In this document: positions 49,624-55,500 of the stretch, piece by piece
Numbering within the stretch: position 1 is the first letter of the stretch
Layout of the letters: every line of letters begins with the position of its first letter
Origin: Balanoglossus misakiensis
Lineage: Eukaryota > Animalia > Hemichordata
Length of the DNA stretch: 64,000 nucleotides
Reading direction: 5' to 3'
Assembly (NCBI GenBank): GCA_040954595.2
Contig: CM082585.2
Coordinates: forward strand, 11,139,995 to 11,203,994
Program-made: the position numbers and the translations under genes
Notes under the pieces: model-generated
The model's database searches: none
What the model was told of the DNA's origin: nothing
The model's input: only the letters and a program-made list of their open reading frames with translations

Positions 49624-52261
49624 AGCCGCACCTCAAATGAGACCAAAATGCGTGGGCTACCCAGTAGGCTTATACCTTATCCAGTTATGGGTAGGCCTCT
49701 ATAGACGATGAAGCAGTGTACACATGGACCATGTATTCATCGGCCATTTGATATTCCGCCACCGATTCCAACATAACCGTAAGTACAACACACCTGATTC
49801 ATAGAGGTCAAGTCAAGCGCATTGTCTGTGATTTAAATTTGGCCAAGCTCACTGTCTTACCCGCCTAGACAGAAGCTTGGGTCTGGCAAAGAACACCAAA
49901 TGCTCCCAGTTCATAACAAACTGGTAGTTGTGGACACAAAACAAATAACCCTAGCTCTACATGATGCACTGGCACAGGTAATCATCAACTAGACTGAGTG
50001 GGTTTGTGTTAAAATTAAGCTGTTTACAGTCCTTGAAGGGGGCCGTGAAGTTTTGACATGTGTCGCAGGGAATGACAGATAGAATCAGGACAGTTGCTTG
50101 TCTGAAAGCCTTGGATGGAGTCAAGGTCATGCAGAAATAGGTGCATAACATTTACTCCGTGGTTTCACAAAGACAGGGAACAGAATGTCAGGGATTCCAC
50201 ATCAGAAGTTAACAAGACTGCATTTTCGTGCAAAGGGTTTACACTCTGAAACTCTCAATGTGAACGCCCAGTCAGTCTCGTCTATACGACAAGCAGGAAA
50301 CCATACCCTATTCAGACAAGTTGAGGTTAAATAGGCATCCCATATTTCAAAACAGTCGAATTTTTTTAACGTGGTCTCTTGACCTAAATCGAAGGGGCAA
50401 ACTGATTTAAGGTAACTATGGTAATTAATCCAAGGGAAGATATCACTATCTAATCACAATCTATTTTCCGCGCAGTATCTGTCACTGTCACGACGGTTTA
50501 TCGGAAGAGAACTTTATATGACTAGGTATCACACCAACCTGGTTAAAACTTGAAAAGCATTTATCTGGTGCTTGATTATTAAAGTACACTTGAGTGTAAA
50601 TCAACCAGCAAATTGCCCGCAATAAACGGGCGTTCAGCAGTACATTCAAGTCTCTCGCCATAAAAAGAAAGTTTCATCATGAAACACAGATCCCCAACAC
50701 AGCAGAAGTCTGTTCATAAAAGTCTCCAGACTACCAGACGAGAAAATGTGGTTTCAACACGATGTTGAACAGAATGAAACAGCATGACTGTAACCCGGTT
50801 GCCATGCGCAAACTGCCGGCTACCTATAGACCCACCACAATGAACTTTTAAGCCGGACAATGACACACTTCAGCTAGGGCTTTATTCAAGATCTTTGCTG
50901 AAAATTTCGGAGCCCCCTTCAATTTTGTCAACTTTGAACTCTGGGTGGGTCATGTGAGGTCACCGCTTCATCATTTTGGCGCTCATCAAACAGAATTTGG
51001 CTGTTCTAATAAACAGTCTGGTTCTATCTGACCTTGGGAGCTTAGGACAATATACATGTCGATGCCAACTTCGGCCCCCATTTTCAAATAGTGAATAATG
51101 GGAAGGTGTTGTTGACAACAGAAACGTCAAAAGCTCAAAGGTCATGATAAATAATGGACATGGCATGGGCTATTTCTGTTGATAAGCGCGATGTTGTAGT
51201 CCCGGACCTTATTGTACGCCTGTTAGTTTACGCAGGCTTGGCTCACATCCAAATAATATAACAATGGTCAGGACTTTGATACCTCCTGAACTCAAACAAC
51301 GCACGCAAGGACAAGATTTTAGCATGCGTCACAACAATGCGGCGACTACAGTTCTAGATTACTTGGCCCAGGTGCCAAAGTGAAAGTAAACTCACATTTC
51401 CTAAACTGCAGATTTACCTTCATGGATTTTGCCAAATCCGATTTAATTCAAGAATTTGATGTCAAGAATGTCTATGTGTTGTAATATCTTTATGTCACAA
51501 GGAGATTTAGCTAAATAGACGCACTGACTGTGTCGACTAATAGAGTCACATTTCCATGTCGGCTCTACAGTCATATGTCAACACGCTCGTCCTCGGAGTA
51601 CGAAAGGCTCCACGGACGTTCTAAATATAGTCTTGAGAATCATGTGAAAATGAAATAAACAAAAACGCAAACGAAAATTAAAATCAGACATTTATTAAGT
51701 CAAAACTGAATAATGTCTTACAACGGAACAGGTTACAACTTGAAGACAAAGTAAGAAACTAAGGAATTCAAGTTAGGATGATGTCAACGTAAATTTATTG
51801 ATAACACTGATTATCTCGAGTTGCTGAACGATAAATGTTCTGATATGCAAGTATACACTAAAGAGGAAAGCATAGTAAACTTGGACATGTTTGTAAATTA
51901 CAAAACGTGAAAAGTAATTAAGATCATGCAATATGCCTTGTCCAAGGCGAATATTGTATGTTTCTAGAAATAGCAGTGTAACTGCCGGAAGTGAAAACTG
52001 TCAGTTTATACACATGGAAACTGTGTGACCTGCCGGAAGTGAAAGAGTACACAGCCTGGACTACTTTTAGGAAAGAAAACTGCGGAAAGAAATTCCAACG
52101 TACAATGGATTACAATGTCACCTGTTGGTTTCTTTGTTGTAAAATCAATTGTAAATGGAGTTCTGCATAAATATTCTCATTGATACACTGAGGTATACAA
52201 TGTTGTGTCTCCACAGACCTGATCATGCTATAGTATATCCCACCTACTGGTACTTGTGTGA

Positions 52262-52510
52262 CTACCACAATCTATGCAAGCCAATGTAGCTGGTATCACT
52301 CGCTAAGTCCACTCTCAGTTCTTGAAAGTTCACTCTGACAGACAACTTTTGCCCAGATTCAACTCGTGCTATTCCAGAAACGTAGCAGGTGTGGTATTGG
52401 TTCTGAATAGTCGGCATGTTGAAGGCTTTGAACAGCTTACACCTTAAGAATCGGTACTCATCAATAAATATAGAATGGCCAACGAACGCGTTGGTATCCA
52501 GAAATGTGAT
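52262..52510 (-). CDS. TNF-D terminal exon T3
   Basis: tcag|[24 protein letters not shown]...[10 protein letters not shown]...[11 protein letters not shown]. Confidence 0.85.
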   Translation of the reverse strand: MTFLDTNAFVGHSIFIDEYRFLRCKLFKAFNMPTIQNQYHTCYVSGIARVESGQKLSVRVNFQELRVDLASDTSYIGLHRLW

Positions 52511-55500
52511 CTGAAACATCAATGCACCAAAACAGGTCCCAGTAAGCTTTGGTGAAACACTTTTGATGTAGTTATATGCTATTTTTCGTCCGGTCGGCAC
52601 CACCAACAACAACAGCGTGCGTATAGCATGATCAAGCCACTCTAAATAAGCCAACAAAGGAACTATCAGCGTGCATGTTGATCACACGGTCGGGATACAC
52701 TATCCGAACCGCAACACGACTGCCCGCATTAAGCCACGTGACCGCTCCTGTATGACAGGTATTATACTTGACATCCGAGTTTGTTCTTGTTTTGGTACAG
52801 GACACAAACTTGCCACCGTTTACGTATATAGCATGGCCCATTATGATACTCGGGTCGTAATATAAAACCTGAAATTGCCAGATAAAACAATCTATCAGGG
52901 TGGCATTTTGGGGCAAAAAAACAAGGGTGGGGGTTTAAGGTTGGTGAGCATGTATTTTATTTTGATATACCGCCATTACCCCCACCGATCACACCCTTTA
53001 AATAACCAACAACAACCAACACATCTTAAATAACAAATCTTGGTTTGTCGGACAGTATAGCACCATCTGGGACCTGAGTGACATGTATGTATGTAAAGAA
53101 GATTGTATGTTATATTTGCATGTGTATTGTAGCTACAAATAAATGCAAATATGTCCTCTGACTGTGTACTCTTTCACTTCTCATTGCACTCAAGTGGTGC
53201 AACGTCACATAAAACAAAAGCAATGAACACTTCTGTGTAACAAATCTTGCAACTTGATTATCACGTTATAATATCTAATTACATGCACAATCAATAATGA
53301 ACAGTCATTTCTAAAGCGTCATGATTTGGCAGTGATAAAATATTAACGATAATGTGTACAAACACTAACTTGTTTACATACACTTTGCTCTGATTGGCAG
53401 TTGGAAAACAAATAGCCACTGAATTATTTTCACCCTATATGCCATAGCTGTGACGAGGAAGCACTGACCTTTAAAAACTGGGCAGAAAAACACATTTTGT
53501 ATCGGAAACAGACGGGGTTTAAATATGCTGAACGCGGCGAACATAAGAGACGAAACCGAAAACCAAGATGATACACATGGCCTTCTATCCTTCTAAGAAT
53601 TCCTTCAATTGGTTGACTTTTATCAACGGCTATTCAAGCAATGGCCGAAGTCCAGTGTTTACACAACACTTGCGGAGACAAGACTTGTCCTTCTAATGTA
53701 TCTTGTGTCACGTTTCCTTTTTTGAACTCCTGGGTGACACAGACCACGTAATCGTGATTGTGTGTAAATTTCCAGGAATGGCCTTCGCACTCATCACAAC
53801 AAACACCGCTATGAACATGAAAGGGTGGTCTCCTTCAATCCCCTGCCTAAGCTACTCTGATAAAACCGACGTAGGTCGTTTCAGGGCTAAGCTGAATCAG
53901 GCGCTGGTTATAGGACACTCTAACAGAGATCTTGCTGTCTTCCTCCACATATGCAACGCCAGCAAGGTAACCAGAGTTGAAGCGTCTCTGGTCGCTCACT
54001 GTTGACTCCGTGCACCGTAAAAACACTTTCTCATCTATGAGAACGGTGTGGCCCATGAATGGGAACGTGTCATAATATTGCACCTATGGGACAAGAATTA
54101 GTGGGAAATGCATAACACTCCTCGAAAATGATCAGATGTCACATCAATGTCACAGAAAAAGTCGTGACCTCGACAAAGTAATTACAGAGTACCTTTAAGG
54201 CATTCTTAAGTGAGTAACGAGCCTCTCGATACTCGATAACTGTCCTAGACAACTGTCGGTCACCAAAGCGATATATCCTGCCCATGAGATAATGAAACCT
54301 TCTCCCACAATGATTATACTGGACAACGGTTTCCAAGAATTCAGCACAGAAAGAGATTAGCAAATAGTCCGAAAGTTAAAGGCTGCCGTCCTGTTGCATT
54401 TAATAGGTAAAGATAAAATCTCACCTGGCTGTATATGTAGTATAGGCCAGATTCGTGTACAGTTATGTTGCCGTCCTGGTTGAGACTAAATTTGTCTTTC
54501 ATCGAGGCGTACTCTGGACGGGCCATCCAGTCTGCGAAGTCCCAGTAGTGGATTTCCCCACCTAGTGAAGGTAACCAGAAAAATAAGTTATAACCGGATG
54601 GAAGTATATCGAAACTGACCCGTGGGGACCTGGACTTCAAATTTAATGACATATTTGTCGAAATGATGGAATAGTATGCAATATTTTCATATTACTCCTT
54701 GTAAAAAGGCAAAACCGTAATCTTGGAGATAATTTGGCACTACGACACAGCACTTTCTGTTTCTCGGTAAGCTGATATGGGACATAACCAAAACGATTAC
54801 GACTTTGCCCCGTCGCATATGGGTGTAAGAAAGTGCATACTCGGCAGGGACTGTACCAGTGTGTTCACAAATAGATGATTTTCCGTTCATTACGAGATCT
54901 CGCGAGACTAAGTCAATTACCATAATACAAGTCAAGTTTGGTAGGTGCAGTGTTAAACAAAAATTGTAACGTTTGTGCCGTTTAACATTATTGGCCATGT
55001 GGTTCTTTTTTGTCCTGTGTCACATGAGAATGTCCTCTCAAAATAAACTGCTCAGTCACGCGAGATCTCGCAGGGCCCCGTGGAGTTCGGAAAACGATCT
55101 ATTGTTCTCACATCTAGCATATCAGGAAAGGCTTACCTTTCCCAACCGTAACCTCCCCATATTGCCGCCTATTTCCTAAACAACCATGCAAAGCAGAGAA
55201 AGAAATGGAATTATAAATGCAGGCCATGCAGAATTTGTTTACACTTTAAAATGTCCAGATCCCCAGACTGTACGCCCAATTGATTCTCGATTCCATCATC
55301 TAAATGTTGATCTGTGTTAGATTCACGACAAATATCAGTGGGAAATGTTTTCCGAATTTGTCAATACTGGCTAGGGTTAGTGATATACATGTAGTTATAG
55401 ACAATCTTTGTTATGCTATAACATGTCATTCCTGGAACTAGCGATATGCCATCAGAAACCATTCACCAAACCGTAAATAGTGATACAAACACCACTGACC

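Follow-up and report, generated by a model that had tools for sequence, protein, structure and literature searches.

A long-range inverted repeat around two of three alternative last exons in adjacent hemichordate TNF genes, a candidate RNA stem for exon choice

In Drosophila Nmnat, a stem between two sequence boxes, box1 and box2, loops out an alternative acceptor, and mutations within the boxes shift the use of that acceptor, as set out in the accessible portion of PMC2724269. In the Drosophila genes PGRP-LC, CG42235 and Pip, each cassette has a selector upstream of it, and pairing of this selector with a docking site near the common donor activates the next cassette (PMC6191721, in its openly available sections). 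Among human PCCRs, one loops out the terminal exon of FGFR1OP2, according to the available text of PMC8052449. Whether RNA pairing serves as a general control of tandem terminal exons is treated as an open question in the accessible part of PMC9013439. The main texts of the openly readable literature on hemichordate, amphioxus and deuterostome TNF ligands and on tandem terminal exons yielded no description of the exon cluster or the stem presented here.

The window, the whole stretch of 64,000 nucleotides of Balanoglossus misakiensis that was analysed, holds two adjacent TNF-family paralogues, TNF-C and TNF-D, each with three interchangeable last exons (T1, T2 and T3). They encode type II TNF ligands, that of TNF-D with a collagen segment, like the Eiger/ectodysplasin-like ligands of P. 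flava (Ptychodera flava), G. talaboti and Branchiostoma, and the donor of the TNF-D common exon serves T1, T2 and T3. We consider it somewhat probable that conserved complementary boxes in these genes form a long-range stem in the pre-mRNA, looping out T2 and T3 and likely favouring splicing of the common exon to T1. The exons and poly(A) signals lie as follows.

55760..55814, minus strand: TNF-D A1, alternative exon, start of the TNF domain
55647..55707, minus strand: TNF-D A2, alternative exon, mutually exclusive with A1 in P. flava isoforms
55137..55175, minus strand: TNF-D optional exon, 39 nt, inside the TNF domain
54425..54561, minus strand: TNF-D common exon, N-terminal part of the TNF domain, Pfam positions from 2
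53847..54083, minus strand: TNF-D T1, terminal exon, 78 aa, C-terminal half of the TNF domain, 86% to the P. flava isoform tail
52956..52961, minus strand: AATAAA in the loop, downstream of TNF-D arm 1 and upstream of T2, which T1 might use as a proximal poly(A) signal
52632..52868, minus strand: TNF-D T2, terminal exon, 78 aa, 74% to the P. flava tail
52262..52510, minus strand: TNF-D T3, terminal exon, 82 aa, 68% to the P. flava tail
51691..51799, minus strand: two AATAAA (start 51799, 51696) downstream of TNF-D arm 2, likely the shared distal poly(A) region
46023..46147, minus strand: TNF-C common exon
45604..45834, minus strand: TNF-C T1, terminal exon, intact ORF, no close relative found
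44847..45077, minus strand: TNF-C T2, terminal exon, with its join to the common exon seen in an X3 contig
44518..44760, minus strand: TNF-C T3, terminal exon, no Pfam match alone, 48-49% to the G. talaboti tail

Within one gene T1-T3 are homologous and 22-36% identical, and thus form a tandem-duplicated cluster; because they are terminal, they are mutually exclusive by construction. The earlier note had read them as alternative terminal exons, and the annotation of P. flava supports this, since all three tails of the orthologue are placed on one shared exon, T1 in 9, T2 in 9 and T3 in 15 of 33 isoforms. In the TNF-C-like gene of G. talaboti T2 appears in one and T3 in three of four isoforms, and a tail resembling TNF-C T1 is absent from all five TNF-C-like proteins of relatives (best identity 34-37%). 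An amphioxus (Branchiostoma) relative has an alternative-tail layout of the same kind, and the junction that precedes the alternative C-terminal half-domain exons matches in TNF ligands of P. flava, G. talaboti and Branchiostoma. A tree of 23 distinct tails, all of them kept, resolves only orthologous pairs and does not reach down to the relation between the amphioxus and hemichordate clusters. The read data comprise three runs from one sample of one study, possibly the sample from which the window itself comes; none is recorded as RNA, yet the X3 contigs join at intron boundaries. Among the joints listed, one of these contigs (record 19), which need not equal a single transcript, has the TNF-C common exon spliced to T2 and then runs on across T3 as far as 44277. 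X3 cover is lacking over TNF-C T1 and over T1, T2 and the common exon of TNF-D, and there it is evidence neither way.

The repeat of TNF-D brackets T2 and T3 and lies downstream of T1. Positions 53162-53180 and 52036-52054 are exact reverse complements, a 19-nt inverted repeat whose coordinates and complementarity are as the earlier note had given them; the enclosure of T2 and T3 claimed there, with arm 1 between T1 and T2 and arm 2 beyond T3, likewise follows from the coordinates. On the transcribed minus strand two further pairs, one of them G·U, extend the 19-mer to a helix of 21 uninterrupted base pairs (53180-53160 with 52056-52036, -34.6 kcal/mol).

53160..53180, minus strand: TNF-D stem arm 1, purine-rich, perfect 19-mer at 53162-53180
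52036..52056, minus strand: TNF-D stem arm 2, pyrimidine-rich, perfect 19-mer at 52036-52054

Arm 1 falls within the 3' UTR of T1, with the T2 acceptor 292 nt downstream, and arm 2 lies 206 nt past the T3 stop, likely in a shared 3' UTR. Such a repeat is rare by chance: when the whole window was dinucleotide-shuffled, 1 of 200 trials gave an exact inverted repeat of at least 19 nt, and none of 100 shuffled versions of the 4.2-kb 3' region gave a helix of -34 kcal/mol or lower. Folding predicts the pre-mRNA stem that had been claimed, with a mean pair probability in 1.3-kb folds of 1.0 for TNF-D and 0.94 for the TNF-C stem described below, and the main stem is retained in minimum-energy folds of 2.4-4.2 kb.

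We find the same repeat, absent from the earlier note, in TNF-C, at 45150-45175 and 44118-44143, in positions matching those of TNF-D.

45150..45185, minus strand: TNF-C stem arm 1, sharing 18/18 nt with the core in TNF-D, with paired, paralogue-specific extensions on both sides
44107..44143, minus strand: TNF-C stem arm 2, sharing 16/18 nt with the core in TNF-D

Arm 1 lies 73 nt upstream of TNF-C T2 and arm 2 lies 375 nt past the TNF-C T3 stop. In both genes arm 2 is represented in contigs of X3, the run that shows spliced joins. With up to three mismatches allowed, the 64 kb contain four copies only, namely the arms of TNF-D and TNF-C. The four flanks are unalignable between the paralogues (13-19 of 60 positions identical) and the terminal exons T1, T2 and T3 share 33, 51 and 32% protein identity, so that the keeping of the arm cores in so distant a paralogue points, as far as the window shows, to selection on the repeat, rather than to a dispersed repeat. 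Under the stricter test, with 500 shuffles at either of two thresholds, no matching helix arose at the equivalent place in both paralogues; at a lax threshold the null for the main stem is 57 of 1000, and a lax screen for helices shared by the paralogues (10 bp, 8/10 identity) is uninformative, with at least one in 395 of 500 shuffles. Among 27 homologous stem columns, 16 hold the same pair, three double changes and one single change still pair, and pairing is broken in three in TNF-C, three in TNF-D and one in both. The covariation is thin: it comes from two sequences, and its three double changes sit at the ends of the stem, whose homology is uncertain because the flanks cannot be aligned; in the core, 16 of 18 pairs are unchanged. 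TNF-C has a stem extension of its own of 8 bp. Its two inner core changes produce G·U pairs on the strand opposite the transcript, but A·C mismatches on the transcript itself, and the TNF-C duplex therefore does better in antisense (-52.2) than in sense (-40.6); TNF-D behaves the other way round (-41.5 and -46.7). The haplotypes of X1 record 5 carry 25 substitutions in 8.1 kb, too sparse to bear on the arms.

A question arises, which of the known systems does this arrangement resemble? As in Nmnat (PMC2724269, accessible portion), one pair of near-invariant boxes hundreds of nt apart would loop out 3' acceptors and set protein C-termini, with box 2, here arm 2, upstream of a poly(A) signal. 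In Nmnat the proximal acceptor is hidden and the distal one favoured, whereas the TNF repeat encloses the distal two of three exons, and pairing would work to the advantage of the proximal one; some 1.0-1.1 kb would be looped out, against about 350 nt in Nmnat, and the Nmnat stem has been proven by compensatory mutation, whereas the TNF stem is a prediction from sequence. Features by which stems of the Nmnat or PCCR type are recognised are present at this locus, that is, near-perfect boxes beyond chance, conservation relative to the flanks (between paralogues only) and alternatively used splice sites enclosed. Like the FGFR1OP2 PCCR, it has a long, near-perfect, conserved complementarity around alternative terminal exons with poly(A) signals in the loop (PMC8052449, available text); unlike in PCCRs, this conservation is between ancient paralogues and not orthologues, and RNA-binding-protein and probing data belong to the human cases only. 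With PGRP-LC, CG42235 and Pip, as the open sections of PMC6191721 describe them, the TNF genes share an immune-related nature, a tandem array of duplicated 3' cassettes through which a recognition domain is exchanged in part, long-range complementarity that has been conserved and, in TNF-C, hints of competing pairings beside upstream alternative donors. Unlike in those genes, the 3' arm lies downstream of the entire cluster, there is no partner near the common donor and no competition in TNF-D, and neither paralogue shows a standout pairing by which a chosen exon would be drawn up to the common donor or its neighbour activated. Base pairing within a duplicated-exon cluster also recalls Dscam1 and 14-3-3 (PMC6191721, same sections); there the exons are internal, with one docking site and many selectors, whereas the TNF exons are terminal, with one selector-like arm for three. 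The docking-site/selector class (Dscam1, 14-3-3, PGRP-LC) was considered and, for TNF-D, rejected: the TNF-D arms have one clear partner each, per-exon partners are missing, and, as no second competing partner was found, TNF-D is better described as a single loop-out stem. Thus, of the RNA switch proposed earlier, the geometry would fit a hiding of the T2 and T3 acceptors, whereas the likening to the Dscam1/14-3-3 class is not retained, nor is the word switch, which would imply regulation.

Further helices were also seen in both genes, as follows.

52622..52638, minus strand: 5' arm of the TNF-D inner stem, overlapping the T2 stop codon, 17 bp, P 0.95, suggestive only
52216..52232, minus strand: TNF-D inner stem 3' arm, just past T3, pairing would loop out T3 alone, suggestive only
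46544..46579, minus strand: TNF-C element overlapping the A1 donor, with which arm 1 might also pair, a lead
46395..46411, minus strand: TNF-C intronic element, a short way 3' of the A2 donor, a lead

A helix as strong as the TNF-D inner stem occurs in 10 of 100 shuffles, and a counterpart of it was looked for in TNF-C and not found. The TNF-C intronic element is complementary to two sites in the T1 UTR, 45509-45493 (17 bp) and 45366-45352 (15 bp), and a TNF-D counterpart of this two-selector element is seen only at p~0.07. A candidate second conserved stem, from after A2 to the T1 UTR, was rejected, as it is matched in 69 of 1000 shuffles and is missing from the long-range helices of the full-length folds. 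Arm 1 of TNF-C pairs with the A1-donor element at -30.0 (70 of 2000 intron shuffles), against -40.6 with arm 2; arm 1 of TNF-D has no equivalent A1-donor partner (1408 of 2000 intron shuffles). The intron between the common exon and T1 holds no standout helix in either gene. A search of 42500-57000 against Rfam gave no match at the arms and one chance-level match outside them (mir-246, E 0.5, 23/60 bits).

Splicing of a last intron awaits definition of the 3' end, and therefore arm 2 would already be transcribed by then. The three isoforms probably end at a common distal poly(A) site, and T3 and T2 would, but for the stem, be much nearer to the poly(A) signal (in TNF-D, 0.8 kb for T3 and 2.4 kb for T1). 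The stem would sequester the T2 and T3 acceptors and cut about 1.0-1.1 kb off the path from T1 to poly(A), keeping T1 competitive; where it forms too late on a given molecule, T2 or T3 would be used, and in TNF-D the weaker inner stem may set T2 apart from T3. If this is the case, RNA structure chooses among duplicated last exons in a deuterostome, in a compact and testable form whose geometry is the reverse of the Drosophila cases, with the distal exons hidden and the 3' arm in the shared UTR. The perfect stem of TNF-D and the imperfect one of TNF-C provide a built-in comparison. The swapping of the receptor-binding domain of TNF ligands by splicing in hemichordates and amphioxus bears on the growth of the ligand repertoire before the vertebrate gene duplications. 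It is conceivable, as a speculation to which we give little weight, that TNF diversified combinatorially in invertebrate deuterostomes, two first-strand exons, an optional loop exon and three half-domain last exons giving up to 12 TNF domains per gene in a layout common to acorn worms and amphioxus, and that long-range stems with their base in the shared 3' UTR, forming an ancient network of nested and competing pairings, select the terminal exon and tie this selection to the exons chosen upstream, so that ligands of differing receptor specificity arise from one gene. The thin covariation and the A·C mismatches of TNF-C speak against the stem reading, and further observations run against the T1-favouring view: T1 is the proximal acceptor and its pyrimidine tract is no weaker, so it may need no help; the AATAAA at 52961 in TNF-D could terminate a T1 mRNA upstream of arm 2, and TNF-C keeps the stem though no relative shows a TNF-C T1 isoform.

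The stem might instead act in the mature T1 mRNA, where folding back a 3' UTR of 2.2-2.6 kb would bring the poly(A) tail nearer to the stop and protect the message from long-UTR decay or alter its localisation or translation, splice choice being set otherwise. This role, the main rival, fits the data almost as well as exon choice, and we regard it as a minority possibility. A T1 mRNA ending at the distal site would keep both arms (stop-to-signal distance 2151 nt in TNF-D, 2575 nt in TNF-C), the TNF-D inner stem begins exactly at the T2 stop, and fold-back suppresses NMD in human cells, according to the accessible part of PMC2689704. However, 1.0-1.5 kb of UTR would remain after 1.0-1.1 kb is looped out, both paralogues bracket just the two competing acceptors and not the longest possible span, and the other strong complementarities of TNF-C use intronic sequence that is present in pre-mRNA only.

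It is improbable that the conserved sequence is itself the signal, the pyrimidine tract of arm 2 serving within the shared UTR as a cryptic acceptor or as a site for an RNA-binding protein or a microRNA, with arm 1 as an antisense mask found only in T1-containing RNA, Atrophin-box-like. The core is conserved and not covarying (16/18 pairs unchanged), TNF-D arm 2 is followed by an AG within a few nt, with a partial tandem copy and another AG at 51981, and masking of an acceptor within a box has a precedent (PMC2724269, accessible portion). Yet X3 contigs run unspliced across both arm-2 regions (record 21, 51780-52243, in TNF-D; record 18, 43043-44247, in TNF-C), TNF-C is without a close AG, neither a fourth coding terminal exon nor a TNF-like ORF was found past arm 2 in either gene, and Rfam gives no match at the arms. 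Given that plain pairing elements are also near-invariant, the Nmnat boxes being almost 100% conserved in the same portion of PMC2724269, the invariance of the core is equally in keeping with pairing.

Quite improbable, too, is that the four copies are DNA elements, such as sites for transcription factors of an IRF- or ETS/IRF-like kind within immune-gene 3' enhancers, their opposite orientation being incidental. The core contains AAGTGAAAG, in the manner of the IRF or ETS/IRF consensus, the window has the 10-mer GGAAGTGAAA at two places only, TNF-D arm 2 and its tandem copy (52035, 51987), and the TNF-C duplex is stronger on the non-transcribed strand. Against this, the 18 conserved nt and the 21-31 bp of complementarity exceed such motifs, both genes agree in arm orientation and position, and outside the core the arms are more like their own-gene partner than the arms of the other gene (first position, extensions). 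A dispersed repeat, old transposon ends or chance is a very improbable source: although the window holds many repeat-derived inverted pairs, its four copies all stand at homologous sites of two genes, the arms lie outside any long repeat because single long DNA contigs span each of them at low X1 bin depth (61-66 vs hundreds to thousands at known repeats), no target-site duplication is visible in the flanks, and a neutral remnant would hardly stay 16-18/18 identical with its flanks randomised. Longer exact inverted repeats, of 28, 20 and 20 nt, are also present in the window.

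The TNF-family genes of the window form a tandem cluster on the minus strand. In the adjacent paralogues TNF-C and TNF-D, a common exon supplies the donor for three alternative terminal exons, T1 to T3 in order of transcription. A1 and A2, the exons that start the TNF domain, are a second mutually exclusive pair in both genes; an intron of 52 nt in TNF-D and 74 nt in TNF-C lies between them, and a message with both would be out of frame. Judging from the sequence, the choice of A1 or A2, an optional 39-nt exon and the three tails could give TNF-D up to 12 TNF domains.

Features in the window
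55814-55647, minus, A1/A2 pair of TNF-D, domain-start exons
54561-54425, minus, TNF-D common exon, aligning to the beginning of the Pfam TNF profile
54083-53847, minus, TNF-D T1, phase 0, aligning to the latter half of the Pfam TNF profile
52868-52632, minus, TNF-D T2, phase 0, profile match as for T1
52510-52262, minus, TNF-D T3, phase 0, profile match as for T1
46636-46438, minus, A1/A2 pair of TNF-C, domain-start exons
46147-46023, minus, TNF-C common exon, layout as in TNF-D
45834-45604, minus, TNF-C T1, layout as in TNF-D
45077-44847, minus, TNF-C T2, layout as in TNF-D
44760-44518, minus, TNF-C T3, layout as in TNF-D
36643-39685, minus, further TNF-like gene
about 30900-34400, minus, further TNF-like gene
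12748-14076, nucleotide-diphospho-sugar transferase gene, with a match to Pfam PF03407

A search for alternative tails in the two further TNF-like genes found none; the one at 36643-39685 has the latter half of its TNF domain in one piece, extended at the C terminus by about 140 aa. The proteins nearest to TNF-D are eiger/ectodysplasin-like isoforms of Ptychodera flava, within XP_070538496-532, which makes an acorn worm the probable source of the DNA. All 33 retrieved carry one of three tails on the same common exon (T1-type 9, T2-type 9, T3-type 15, as counts of annotation models and not abundances), with 86%, 74% and 68% identity, respectively, to the tails of TNF-D. These isoforms also choose between two domain-start exons and either include or skip an exon of 13 residues (10, 6, 6 and 11 isoforms), and all three exons are found in the window. 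LOC144442193 of Glandiceps talaboti, a TNF-C-like gene, has the T2 tail in one of four isoforms and the T3 tail in three. In the Branchiostoma LOC144923575 cluster, at least three complete tails follow this junction among 6 isoforms, and a B. belcheri model runs pieces of three tails together. The sea-star and urchin clusters examined, picked by their likeness to T2, show a single tail per gene, and the tail tree supports orthologous pairs but no deeper grouping of these clusters.

Reads came from three runs of one sample. In a contig of run X3 (record 19) the TNF-C common exon is spliced directly onto T2, and the sequence then extends beyond an AATAAA and across T3 as far as 44277; record 18 (43043-44247) includes the downstream arm of the TNF-C inverted repeat and record 21 (51780-52243) that of TNF-D. 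A contig is not a transcript, and the X3 contigs fit alternative acceptors whose isoforms share a distal 3' end, with the downstream arms transcribed. X3 is described as probably DNA, though it behaves like an RNA run, because contigs in records 19 and 20 show joins at intron boundaries; a further join in TNF-C links 48064 to 47897.

The earlier note had reported a perfect 19-bp inverted repeat enclosing T2 and T3 of TNF-D. Both 19-mers are present, arm 1 at 53162-53180 between T1 and T2 and arm 2 at 52036-52054 after T3, and they are exact reverse complements. On the minus strand, which bears the gene, they give a helix of 21 bp including G·U pairs (-34.6 kcal/mol), the strongest uninterrupted one of the 3' region. 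Of 200 shuffles of the window, one produced an exact inverted repeat of at least 19 nt, and 100 shuffles of the 3' region gave no helix as strong. TNF-C carries the same inverted repeat at the corresponding sites (45150-45185 and 44107-44143); at neither of two thresholds did any of 500 shuffles produce a matching helix in the paralogue. The inverted repeat is a real, selected feature, for which we propose a role in RNA control, a function predicted from sequence.

Arm 1 is identical between the paralogues at 18 of 18 positions and arm 2 at 16 of 18, whereas the flanks agree at 13-19 of 60. When the 3' regions of the two genes are compared, no other non-coding sequence matches as well as arm 1; protein identity of the terminal exons is 33% (T1), 51% (T2) and 32% (T3). 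Across 27 stem columns, 16 pairs are the same, 3 are double-changed, 1 is single-changed and 7 are broken in at least one gene. The double changes sit at the ends of the stem, and TNF-C has its own 8-bp extension. TNF-C differs at two core positions, which form A·C mismatches in the transcribed RNA and would be G·U on the opposite strand; the duplex energies are -40.6 sense versus -52.2 antisense in TNF-C, and -46.7 versus -41.5 in TNF-D. From the arms as compared with their flanks, the column changes and the strand energies, we infer that selection on the arm sequence is clear and that selection acting specifically on sense-strand pairing is likely.

In predicted folds the TNF-D stem has a mean pair probability of 1.0 (1351 nt); the TNF-C core stem reaches 0.94 (1261 nt), and the main stem is retained in minimum-energy folds of 2.4-4.2 kb. 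All these calculations assume equilibrium and take no account of co-transcriptional folding or of proteins. Other pairings, found post hoc, are candidate leads only. In TNF-D an inner helix of 17 bp, from the T2 stop to just past T3, is nested inside the main stem (P 0.95); its strength was matched in 10 of 100 shuffles, and TNF-C has no counterpart. A TNF-C element 3' of the A2 donor is complementary to two T1 UTR sites, two helices as strong arising in 2 of 100 shuffles; its look-alike in TNF-D is weak (69 of 1000 shuffles). TNF-C arm 1 could also pair across the A1 donor, a partner that ranks second among 98 sites at -30.0 and is equalled in 70 of 2000 intron shuffles; TNF-D arm 1 lacks this pairing.

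Splicing of the last intron may wait for the 3' end of the transcript. From the T1 acceptor to the distal AATAAA there are 2387 nt in TNF-D and 2805 nt in TNF-C, from the T3 acceptor 814 and 1731 nt, and the stem loops out 1103 and 1006 nt. Such a delay would give the stem time to form, and once formed it would hold the T2 and T3 acceptors in its loop and bring T1 closer to the poly(A) signal. Given 3'-end-dependent splicing, we lean slightly towards a model in which the stem hides the T2 and T3 acceptors and shortens the T1 path. Against it stand above all the position of T1, already the proximal acceptor, an AATAAA at 52961 within the TNF-D loop, and the finding of a tail like TNF-C T1 in none of five TNF-C-like proteins of relatives. 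The TNF stem would act much as the Nmnat stem (PMC2724269) and human looped-out terminal exons (PMC8052449) do, its geometry being the reverse of theirs, and the gene layout is close to that of PGRP-LC (PMC6191721). The docking-site/selector class, invoked in the earlier note, does not accommodate TNF-D. A search of openly accessible papers brought up no published account of this TNF exon cluster. The loop-out stem, its role being predicted, would represent a variation on known RNA control in a TNF gene of unusual combinatorial layout.

The stem could instead stabilise a long-UTR T1 mRNA, for which PMC2689704 offers a comparison; we consider this unlikely. Less likely again, the pairing would mask a sequence signal in arm 2. 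We give little credence to the arms being DNA motifs. A 10-mer at 51987 and 52035 (plus strand), with its sole two copies in the window, lies in tandem at TNF-D arm 2 and resembles an ETS/IRF composite site; on the transcript each copy ends in a pyrimidine tract and AG. A repeat or chance is the least probable origin: in run X1 each arm is spanned by a single contig at a bin depth of 61-66, where known repeats reach hundreds to thousands, which places the arms outside any long dispersed repeat.

Just downstream of TNF-C, a high-copy repeat (41870-42803) has a terminal hairpin whose arms measure 53 nt, 28 nt of them exact. Short high-copy elements lie in the TNF introns at 55956-56044, 54870-55100 and about 46250-46350; one is MITE-like, with 22-nt terminal inverted repeats, and others have a palindromic core also present in copies at 15455 and 30650-30900. 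Elsewhere, we take the genes at 8273-11608, 16635-19610 and 22351-22683 to be elongation-factor-G-like, a GPALPP-motif gene and TAF9-like, respectively; a 323-aa coiled-coil ORF (18236-19207) lies inside the second.
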